From: Escherichia coli
GTDB taxonomy: Bacteria > Pseudomonadota > Gammaproteobacteria > Enterobacterales > Enterobacteriaceae
Length of the DNA stretch: 49,174 bases
Reading direction: 5' to 3' (one strand)
Assembly: GCF_003334255.1 (NCBI RefSeq)
Contig: NZ_QOWU01000040.1
The translations under genes were made by a program, and so were the position numbers. Within the stretch, counting starts at the first letter, position 1; each line of letters opens with the position of its first letter. The notes under the pieces are model-generated. The model did not search any database and was not told the origin of the DNA. It saw only the letters and a program-made list of their open reading frames with translations. This document shows positions 32,738 to 35,005 of the stretch, one piece after another.

Positions 32738-32775
32738 GGTGGCTTAGCCAGACTAAGCCACCGCTCTCGTTTTTT
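32738..32775. terminator. Hairpin terminator between convergent yigF and corA
   Basis: GGTGGCTTAG-CCAGA-CTAAGCCACC 10-bp stem followed by GCTCTCGTTTTTT; the T-run overlaps the corA stop codon. Confidence 0.65.
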
Positions 32776-33724
32776 ACAACCAGTTCTTCCGCTTAAAGTA
32801 CAGATACGGTGCCAGGCCCGCGAGGATCATAAAGATAATCGCGCCAGGGTAGCCGAAGCTCCACTTCAGTTCTGGCATAAACTCAAAGTTCATGCCATAG
32901 CTGGAAGCAACGAGCGTCGGCGGCAGGAATACCACGGATACCACCGAGAAGATTTTGATGATGCGGTTCTGCTCGATGTTGATAAAACCCATTGCCGCCT
33001 GCATCAGGAAGTTCACCTTCTGGAACAGGGATTCGTTATGCGGCAGCAGGGATTCGATATCTCGCAGGATTTCACGCGCCTGCTCCAGTTGCCCACCCGG
33101 TAAACGCGCTTTACGCACCAGGAAGTTGAGCGCGCGCTGGGTATCCATCAGACACAGGCGAACTTTCCAGCCGATATCTTCCAGTTCCGCCAGAGTGGAG
33201 AGCGCCTCGTCGTACTCATCGCCCTGATGCCCTTCCATAATCACCCGGCTCAACTGCTCCAGGTCGCTATAGATATTTTCAATTTCATCTGCCAACTGTT
33301 CGATTTTGGTTTCGAACAGATCCAGCAGCAACTCGTAGGCGTTACCGTCTACCATCGACTGGCTACGGGCACGCATACGATACAGACGAAAAGCGGGCAG
33401 TTCACGCTCACGCAGAGTAAACAGACGACCATCACGGATGGTAAATGCCACAGTGGAGTTACCGGCGTGATCTTCCGCATCTTCAAAGAAGAAGAAGGAG
33501 TGAATATGCAGGCCGTCGTCGTCTTCAAAGAAACGTGCCGATGCTTCGATGTCTTCCAGTTCCGGGCGGGTTGCCAGGCTCTGGCCAAGTTCAGATTGTA
33601 CGCGCAGTCGCTCGTCGTCGTCCGGTTCGACAAGATCAATCCATACTGCATTTACAAGGGGTTGTGACTCTTCGACTTCCAGCCGGGTCAGTCGGTTATT
33701 TTCCAGTTGAAATGCGCTCAGCAT
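32774..33724 (-). CDS. corA: Magnesium/cobalt transport protein CorA
   Basis: Track ORF 32774..33739. Start trimmed to the internal ATG ([17 protein letters not shown]), 316 aa. C-terminal YGMNF motif present. Confidence 0.95.
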
Positions 33725-34093
33725 GACCGGGACTCCCAATGCTTAAAATATCGGACAGTTCGGTGGGCACACAGAAACAAATTGGGTTTCAGACCATTAA
33801 ACAGCCTGACTCAGCGCGACGGGAAAAATTGAGGTCGCTGACAACCGCTAAGGCTATCAGCAAAAAGGGATAGCCTTAGGAGTTGATCCTGGATGACAGG
33901 ATAGTGAGCCAGTATCTACTGGGTGTGTCCAAGGCGAATGTCCTCTTAGAGTGATCGTGCGCGCATGTTACGCCAGCAAAATTTTGCCGTCAACACGCAA
34001 CAGAACACCACAGAACAATAGTTGAACTTCGCGCTTTTTGGTACTCGTCAAGGTCGCTAACAGGATAAAAAAATCCCACATCCAGGACCTATA

Positions 34094-34858
34094 ATGGCGC
34101 ATCAGCTACTCATTGGTAAAGGAATGATCACCTTGAATCTCAAACGGATTTTTCTCGCCCTCACCTTACTTCCCTTGTTTGCTGTTGCCGCTGATGATTG
34201 CGCACTCTCAGATCCGACGCTGACCGTACAGGCGTATACCGTTAATCCTCAAACAGAGCGGGTGAAAATGTACTGGCAAAAAGCCAATGGCGAAGCGTGG
34301 GGAACGTTACATGCTCTGCTGGCGGATATTAATAGTCAGGGTCAGGTGCAGATGGCGATGAACGGCGGCATCTATGATGAAAGCTATGCGCCGCTCGGTT
34401 TGTACATCGAAAACGGTCAGCAGAAGGTGGCGTTAAATCTCGCTTCAGGTGAAGGGAATTTCTTTATCCGTCCTGGCGGCGTGTTTTATGTCGCGGGAGA
34501 TAAAGTCGGCATCGTTCGTCTGGATGCCTTCAAAACCAGTAAAGAGATTCAGTTTGCGGTGCAGTCAGGGCCAATGTTGATGGAAAACGGTGTAATTAAT
34601 CCGCGTATTCATCCCAACGTCGCCTCAAGCAAAATTCGTAACGGTGTTGGGATTAATAAACATGGGAACGCCGTGTTTTTGTTGAGCCAGCAGGCAACAA
34701 ATTTTTATGATTTTGCCTGTTATGCCAAAGCGAAACTGAACGTTGAGCAGCTGCTTTATCTTGATGGCACGATTTCACATATGTATATGAAAGGCGGGGC
34801 AATCCCGTGGCAACGCTATCCTTTTGTCACCATGATTTCCGTCGAGCGGAAAGGTTAA
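34094..34858 (+). CDS. yigE: Secreted/periplasmic protein of unknown function (YigE, DUF2233-like as I recall)
   Basis: 254-aa ORF; a signal-peptide-like segment (LKRIFLALTLLPLFAVAADD) follows a short N-terminal extension, so the true start may be an internal ATG. Confidence 0.8.
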   Translation: MAHQLLIGKGMITLNLKRIFLALTLLPLFAVAADDCALSDPTLTVQAYTVNPQTERVKMYWQKANGEAWGTLHALLADINSQGQVQMAMNGGIYDESYAPLGLYIENGQQKVALNLASGEGNFFIRPGGVFYVAGDKVGIVRLDAFKTSKEIQFAVQSGPMLMENGVINPRIHPNVASSKIRNGVGINKHGNAVFLLSQQATNFYDFACYAKAKLNVEQLLYLDGTISHMYMKGGAIPWQRYPFVTMISVERKG

Positions 34859-34897
34859 AACGATAGTTTTGTGTCAGATACTGAAGATGGCGCAGAT

Positions 34898-35005
34898 GCC
34901 GGATGCGGCGTAAACGCCCTATCCGGCCTACATGACGTTGCAATTTATTGAATCTGAATGATTTTTTAGGCCAAATAAGGTGCGCAGCACCGCATCCGGC
35001 AACGT
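34898..35005. repeat. REP pair (BIME) between yigE and the uvrD 3' end
   Basis: GCCGGATGCGGCGTAAACGCCCTATCCGGCCTAC at 34898..34931 and an inverted partial copy GCGCAGCACCGCATCCGGCAACG at 34983..35005. Confidence 0.7.

Follow-up and report, generated by a model that had tools for sequence, protein, structure and literature searches.

Why is the E. coli gene corA separated by 369 bp from its divergent neighbour yigE, and what does this gap contain? In enteric bacteria CorA serves as the main constitutive Mg2+ channel. In the stretch of DNA analysed here (49,174 nucleotides, the window) the corA ATG occupies 33724–33722 on the minus strand, as in RefSeq, and the yigE ATG lies at 34094 on the plus strand, leaving 33725–34093 between the genes; the listed ORF 32774–33739 (minus strand) contains the CorA sequence. 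From the spacing, and from the lack of any ORF of 60 or more amino acids, it had been proposed that the gap is a regulatory leader. The coordinates are exact, and the longest ORFs touching the gap on either strand have 44 amino acids. Neither this length nor the lack of such an ORF is unusual for a divergent intergenic region of E. coli. What exceeds chance in the gap is its content, i.e. the fold, an inverted repeat and conservation, and not its length. The region is found in each of the 5426 complete E. coli genomes, with at least 99% identity in 5434 of the 5444 matching records. Our results indicate with high probability (about 0.93) that the gap holds the corA promoter and an mRNA leader that acts as a translation-coupled, Rho-dependent transcription attenuator. 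None of the sequence features of the window contradicts this model. Since the leader and its short ORF, corL, are already published and annotated, the finding as such is not new.

For the comparative part, a CorA scan with one genome per species yielded 80 Enterobacterales loci (including Escherichia, Citrobacter, Enterobacter, Klebsiella, Serratia, Yersinia, Pectobacterium, Dickeya, Pantoea, Erwinia, Hafnia and Edwardsiella), a 77-sequence leader alignment and 76 distinct leaders for counting base pairs. In the 80 species there is hardly any variation in the corA promoter and in the 5' two-thirds of the leader. A single sigma-70-like promoter was found, TTGACG–17 nt–TAACAT at 33993–33965 of the minus strand, matching the consensus at 9 of 12 positions. 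TTGAC is kept at −35 in nearly all loci (four Pectobacterium loci have TTGAAG), the spacer between −35 and −10 is 17–18 nt, and GCGTAACATGCGC recurs unchanged in essentially all of the 80 loci. This promoter leaves about 234 nt between the corA start site and the ATG. Together with the published constructs, its conservation contradicts the scenario set against the original prediction, in which transcription would start no more than 50 bp from the ATG. Three indirect sources for the start site differ by 1–2 nt: the numbering of bases mutated in Salmonella (G24C25C26 and G105C106C107) fits a +1 at 33958, 33957 agrees with U211, G216 and U220, the termination sites published for E. coli, and the oligonucleotide name corA41-71txR fits 33956. 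The published E. coli numbering is accordingly offset by 1–2 nt from the Salmonella-based one, and the start site in Table 1 is a probable placement to within 2 nt. GC-rich discriminators, such as the one in this promoter, are typical of stringently (ppGpp/DksA) controlled promoters. Published tests of the corA promoter covered Mg2+ and other cations only (PMC11552253). In Escherichia a perfect 12-bp palindrome, GCAAAATTTTGC, is present between −35 and −10 (33976–33987); it is not conserved in other genera and is therefore probably incidental.

A short ORF with a Shine-Dalgarno sequence had been suggested as something to look for on the minus strand, and it is there. The sequence AAGAGGA (33947–33941) comes 26 nt into the corA transcript, followed after 8 nt by a UUG (33932) whose frame runs to UAA at 33876. 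Translation gives the peptide (M)DTPSRYWLTILSSRINS. Over all 57 bases the ORF coincides with RefSeq ysgD, annotated as "protein YsgD" or "YsgD/CorL family protein". The peptide reaches 48 bits with the NCBIfam equivalog NF041266 (YsgD_CorL; cut-off 30), and its match covers profile positions 2–18 of 18; for this search two non-coding codons from upstream were added to the query, which has to have at least 20 aa. The short ORF, which immediately precedes corA on the minus strand, is a member of the YsgD/CorL family. It was missing from the ORF list because its 18 codons fall under the 20-aa floor and because it starts with UUG. The YsgD sequence of strain BW25113 in the PIRT-seq supplement (PMC12350097) is identical to corL of the window. 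A corL-like ORF with a UUG start at the same position is found in 80 of 80 loci and has 18 amino acids in 73 of them; GAGGA of the Shine-Dalgarno sequence and the UUG are invariant in the 77 leaders. In codons 1–9, first, second and third positions are invariant in 7, 7 and 8 of 9 cases; in codons 10–18 the numbers drop to 1, 1 and 3 of 9, and the variation tracks the hairpin. In corA of the same 70 genomes, 18 of 316 third positions are invariant.

Table 1. Features of the corA–yigE gap and adjoining positions (leader position n = window coordinate 33959 − n)
Feature	Coordinates	Strand	Leader positions or sequence	Basis
corA promoter −35 hexamer	33988..33993	−	TTGACG	consensus scan
corA promoter −10 hexamer	33965..33970	−	TAACAT	consensus scan
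GC-rich discriminator, between −10 and start site	33959–33964	−	GCGCGC	sequence
corA mRNA transcription start (probable, to within 2 nt)	33956..33958	−		7–9 nt after −10
corA 5' leader (5' upstream region), ~234 nt	33725..33958	−		promoter, alignment, folding; published regulatory 5' UR (PMC11552253)
CDS177	33857–33955	−	AUC at transcript positions 4–6	PIRT-seq (PMC12350097)
corL Shine-Dalgarno	33941..33947	−	AAGAGGA	sequence; 8 nt before UUG
corL = ysgD, 18 codons + UAA, UUG start	33876..33932	−	MDTPSRYWLTILSSRINS	translation
Stem-loop A, three-way junction enclosing corL	33873..33935	−		RNAalifold consensus, pair counts
Stem A closing helix			24–30:80–86	
Stem A inner hairpins			37–41:46–50 and 57–62:68–73	
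Stem-loop B, OFF-state	33837..33861	−	98–104:116–122 + 106–107:113–114	consensus, pair counts
Stem-loop C, ON-state	33842..33885	−	80–90:101–111 + 74–78:113–117	inverted repeat, pair counts
Stem-loop D, loop = pyrimidine tract	33811..33841	−	121–125:139–143 + 118–120:146–148	folding, pair counts
Stem-loop E	33789..33809	−	150–156:164–170	consensus, pair counts
G-free tract	33862–33873	−	86–97; CUAUCCCUUUUU	
G-free tract	33821–33834	−	125–138; CCUCAAUUUUUCCC	
rut region (probable placement), by homology to Salmonella positions 89–177	33784..33870	−		composition + Salmonella mapping
Published in vitro Rho/NusG-dependent termination sites	33738..33747	−	U211, G216–U220	PMC11552253, mapped with +1 = 33957
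corA Shine-Dalgarno (33733–33737) and ATG (33722–33724)	33722..33737	−	GGGAG; ATG	sequence
yigE-proximal spacer, presumably with yigE promoter and 5' UTR; outside corA control element	33994..34093	.		comparison

The leader RNA can form five stem-loops, A to E (Table 1). Stem C is mutually exclusive with A and B, and in the OFF-state stem B leaves the pyrimidine tracts on its two sides exposed. Independently of the folding, a search for inverted repeats found a 17-nt repeat with 88% complementarity (33842–33858/33869–33885) that is stem C. The fold of the whole leader has a z-score of −4.15, and 0 of 200 shuffled sequences fold as well. Over the first 175 nt of the leader the two folds differ little in energy, with −39.5 kcal/mol for A+B+E and −46.0 kcal/mol for C+D+E plus the two inner hairpins. 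As more of the leader is transcribed, the fold predicted to be best switches back and forth (A at 90 nt, C at 112, A+B at 125, C+D at 150), as is required of a co-transcriptional switch. All helices A–E are formable in the window sequence, which demonstrates a potential to fold and not actual folding.

The 80 loci contain no Salmonella locus, and Salmonella was compared through the numbered mutations in PMC5314796. This comparison, also proposed with the original prediction, finds the mutated bases at the same or at 2-shifted positions: G24C25C26 and G105C106C107 are the same bases in the window leader, and G155G156C157U158 and G166G167U168C169 have their counterparts, shifted by two positions towards the 5' end, in GGCU and GGUC. 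The Salmonella leader is longer by about 2 nt in the region of the D loop. The positions of these mutations fix helices A–E in the window leader. More specifically, stem B is assigned on the basis that M2 (G105C106C107) disrupts both B and C in Salmonella, the model of stem A agrees with the M1* and M1 mutants, and stem E corresponds to the Salmonella hairpin 152–172. The extension of stem C is confirmed by published oligonucleotides for ON-state mutants, in which 74–79 and 113–118 are swapped (PMC11552253).

Evidence from the alignment points in the same direction. RNAalifold run on the 77 leaders recovers A+B+E unaided. In the 76 distinct leaders 96.1% of base-pair cells are kept for A+B+E and 96.4% for C+D+E; when the 3' partners are slid by 1–3 columns as a control, only 15–44% of cells are paired. 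Changes on both sides were counted at 8 pairs for A+B+E and at 11 for C+D+E against shuffled means of 4.0 and 3.5, a control that overstates significance because the aligned leaders are related. The closing helix of stem A is 99% paired with no pair changed on both sides; hairpin 2 of stem A is fully paired (100%), and in hairpin 3 both sides have changed at 4 pairs, with UA↔AU exchanges in 28–29 sequences. In stem B 99.7% of cells are paired and in stem C 96.7%, the latter with 4 pairs changed on both sides. The core helix of stem D (100% paired) and stem E (94%) have 3 such pairs each. Many helix positions are invariant and hence uninformative on pairing. Bases common to B and C change in a way that suits both stems: A104→G keeps the pairings with U116 in B and with U87 in C, and G117→A occurs together with C74→U, so that partners are kept. 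Judged from the alignment, at least five families of Enterobacterales have kept the promoter, corL and the capacity for both alternative folds.

Rho dependence, the termination sites, the inverse coupling of corL and corA and the Mg2+ response are taken from the literature. In Salmonella the corA leader adopts A+B or C+D, and corL overlaps stem-loop A (Kriner & Groisman, NAR 2016, PMC5314796; earlier work on this leader, Kriner & Groisman, J Mol Biol 2015, is cited there). Efficient translation of corL favours stem-loop B and exposes a rut site at 89–177; Rho terminates at about 220–250, and stem-loop E (152–172) governs the position of termination (PMC5314796). That E. coli has an equivalent of this leader, with a short ORF and Rho, was the core of the original prediction, and it is borne out by corL in the window and by published work on Rho. 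In E. coli K-12 the mechanism has likewise been demonstrated by experiment, with Rho ChIP, in vitro Rho/NusG termination and corL start-codon mutants; the Rho termination score of the leader is 3.3 (Vezina Bedard et al., RNA Biol 2024, PMC11552253). With AGG in place of the UUG of corL, corA expression rises, and with AUG it falls; regulation depends on the leader and not on the promoter, and leader deletions abolish it (PMC11552253). The signal is intracellular Mg2+, and the regulation is modest, about 3-fold, decreasing to 2.4-fold in rho R66S; in the authors' view the step that senses Mg2+ and a part for further factors, for instance RNases, are still to be resolved (PMC11552253). RNase III also affects corA mRNA, according to a paper that cites Lim et al. 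2012. The E. coli and Salmonella leaders described in these studies share with the window the uORF, stems A–E, the rut tracts and the termination position. The oligonucleotides of Vezina Bedard et al. and the K-12/BW25113 sequences of ysgD and CDS177 match the window, and nothing substantive differs. Note that both tracts flanking stem B (leader 86–97 and 125–138) have 0% G and 86–92% C+U, that UCC stands at 89–91 as in Salmonella, and that the Salmonella YC sites 129–130 and 138–140 map approximately onto CCUC and CCC of the 125–138 tract. In E. coli, the rut region probably extends about as far as given in Table 1.

Taken together with the published experiments, these features make the following course of events very probable. 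Transcription would start at about 33957, and the first ~86 nt could form the three-way junction of stem-loop A around corL. When corL is translated efficiently, which would be favoured at higher intracellular Mg2+, stem-loop B would form and the rut tracts would stay single-stranded. Rho could then load on the exposed rut site and, with NusG, terminate transcription about 15–25 nt before the corA start codon. With inefficient translation of corL, stem-loops C and D would form instead, the rut nucleotides would be sequestered and RNA polymerase would read into corA. Stem-loop E is expected in both states and would position the termination site.

Another reading places the sensing of Mg2+ in the RNA: the leader would be a direct Mg2+-binding, riboswitch-like RNA that shifts between A+B and C+D, with corL translation being secondary. 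We consider this possible, if unlikely. The constraint on corL codons 1–9 at the nucleotide level, where 8 of 9 third positions are invariant, would suit such an RNA; it is expected anyway, though, because the bases serve two alternative helices, the Shine-Dalgarno sequence and the start codon. About 1.3-fold Mg2+ regulation persists in the corL-AGG mutant, for Vezina Bedard et al. the target of Mg2+ may be either the RNA structure or translation, and in Salmonella mgtA Mg2+-dependent folding alone modulates Rho termination (PMC11552253). Against these points stand the strong and opposite changes of corA expression with AGG and AUG as the corL start (PMC11552253). In addition, Rfam cmscan of 33400–34400, both strands, found no family covering the leader even at E ≤ 10, Mg_sensor and M-box included. 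Its three hits (mir-76, AaHKsRNA54 and sR53) are at chance level and all far below gathering scores.

Translation-coupled attenuation could also involve more of the leader than stems A–E. The minimum free energy (MFE) fold of the whole E. coli leader joins positions 3–54 to 146–234, long-range segments included. It is conceivable, albeit doubtful, that the 5' part of the leader, freed when C replaces A, pairs with distal segments and, as a related idea, that CDS177 is translated and contributes to the switch. The long-range helices of the MFE fold are 85% paired on the alignment, but their double changes do not exceed those of shuffled alignments, in which pairs and pair types were reached in 197 and 297 of 500 cases. 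The sole compensatory change is the Pantoea-specific A35:U→G:C. Because covariation is weak, we rejected these helices as a finding and keep them as a low-probability lead. If such pairing were true, it could be how C+D acts over more than 100 nt to suppress pausing of RNA polymerase downstream. Several complementary invariant segments of the leader (all minus strand) are paired in the MFE fold. The invariant CUGGCUC of corL codons 7–9 (33906–33912) is perfectly complementary to the invariant GAGUCAG (33806–33812), each of them already having a role in a published stem; CACAC (33923–33927) is complementary to GUGUG (33768–33772), and the bases GGA of the corL Shine-Dalgarno sequence (33941–33943) to UCC (33753–33755).

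CDS177 was reported by PIRT-seq as a frame overlapping corL, +1 relative to it, with 32 amino acids from an AUC (PMC12350097). The frame is open to a conserved UGA in 75 of the 77 leaders, as expected from the nucleotide invariance of the leader. Among the 77 leaders no canonical start codon is conserved for it, and in Yersiniaceae and Hafniaceae an in-frame stop precedes the Shine-Dalgarno sequence. For these reasons we do not accept CDS177 as a conserved gene.

It is quite improbable that YsgD/CorL works in trans as a functional small protein, with CorA or some other membrane protein as a conceivable target, and that the ORF is kept for its peptide. The N-terminus MD(T/A)PS(R/K/T)(Y/C)WL is found at all 80 loci and the length of 18 amino acids at most of them. 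Some changes in corL are synonymous (AGA→CGA in about 12 leaders, ACA→ACG), and YsgD has been detected as a tagged small protein (10.1101/511675) and also by PIRT-seq (PMC12350097). However, third positions of codons 1–9 are as invariant as first and second ones and the variation in codons 10–18 follows the hairpin. The invariant third positions indicate that the conserved "peptide" is largely a by-product of constraint at the RNA level, which argues against a trans-acting YsgD protein. The published corL phenotypes are all explained in cis (PMC11552253, PMC5314796).

That the gap is merely a divergent promoter region shared by corA and yigE, long enough for two promoters with their regulators and free of post-initiation control, is almost certainly wrong: the genes do diverge at an ordinary distance, and a fusion of just the corA promoter shows activity that does not respond to Mg2+ (PMC11552253), yet the conserved promoter lies far from the corA ATG, the transcribed leader is more conserved than synonymous sites of corA, it is kept where yigE is absent (77 of 80 species and at least one E. 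coli strain, ECN24), and its deletion abolishes regulation (PMC11552253).

The attenuator accounts for most of the gap. About 270 of the 369 bp (33725 to ~33993) are corA control, and for this part the leader explains the spacing as had been proposed; for the ~100-bp spacer next to yigE, which is unconserved outside Escherichia, it does not. Upstream of the −35 hexamer the sequences of the 80 loci are unrelated outside Escherichia. yigE is the neighbour of corA in 3 of 80 loci, all Escherichia, and is missing from this position in the other 77. In E. coli ECN24, which lacks yigE, similarity to the window ends at ~34001, just upstream of −35. As conservation ends at −35 and yigE is a neighbour only in Escherichia, the ~100 bp beside yigE do not belong to the element.

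Some observations concern the surroundings. The annotated start of yigE (MAHQLLIGKGMITLNLKRIF..., 34094–34140, plus strand) precedes a second Met at codon 11 (34124), and a signal-peptide-like hydrophobic segment follows this second Met, so that the downstream ATG may be the true start. Between uvrD and yigE/corA, O157:H7 and ECN24 have a gene of the SAM hydrolase/halogenase family that is not in the window. Downstream of corA there are DUF943 and DUF3289 genes in O157:H7 and yigF and yigG in ECN24; judged by gene order, the window apparently has yigF and yigG there. The module of corA promoter, leader and gene is constant among E. coli strains despite these varying neighbours. At ~34880–35005, between yigE and uvrD, there are imperfect palindromes of the GCCGGATGCGGCG/CGCATCCGGC type that resemble REP/BIME elements.

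Among known systems, the mgtA/mgtL leader has a similar design, with a three-way junction around a short uORF and alternative stem-loops A+B versus C, and in both leaders expression is inverse to uORF translation and to Mg2+ (PMC11552253). The resemblance is architectural and not homologous, as there is no detectable homology in sequence or structure and no Rfam match at E ≤ 10. A further difference lies in the corL peptide, which has one proline and few acidic residues. In contrast to mgtA, the promoter of corA is not under PhoP/Mg2+ control, and corA also responds to Mn2+; the mgtA leader is Rho-dependent in Salmonella, whereas involvement of Rho was not detected for E. coli mgtA (PMC11552253). 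The attenuators of trp, his and pheA likewise have a short translated leader ORF that decides between alternative hairpins during transcription. Unlike them, the corA leader uses Rho at a rut site and not an intrinsic terminator. A scan of the region for intrinsic terminators gave 2 terminator-like hits against a shuffle mean of 0.9, i.e. no excess; the two hits are stem B and a sub-hairpin, with an interrupted U-run 9 nt away from stem B. Unlike leader peptides of the trp type, the corL peptide has no repeated codons and no regulatory codon run for a cognate amino acid.

A real regulatory leader had thus been inferred from spacing alone, and its anatomy lends itself to base-by-base mapping. 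The comparison contributes modest detail and leaves the biological picture unchanged: the corA leader is among the few well-dissected cases in which uORF translation, RNA folding and Rho together set the expression of a housekeeping transporter.
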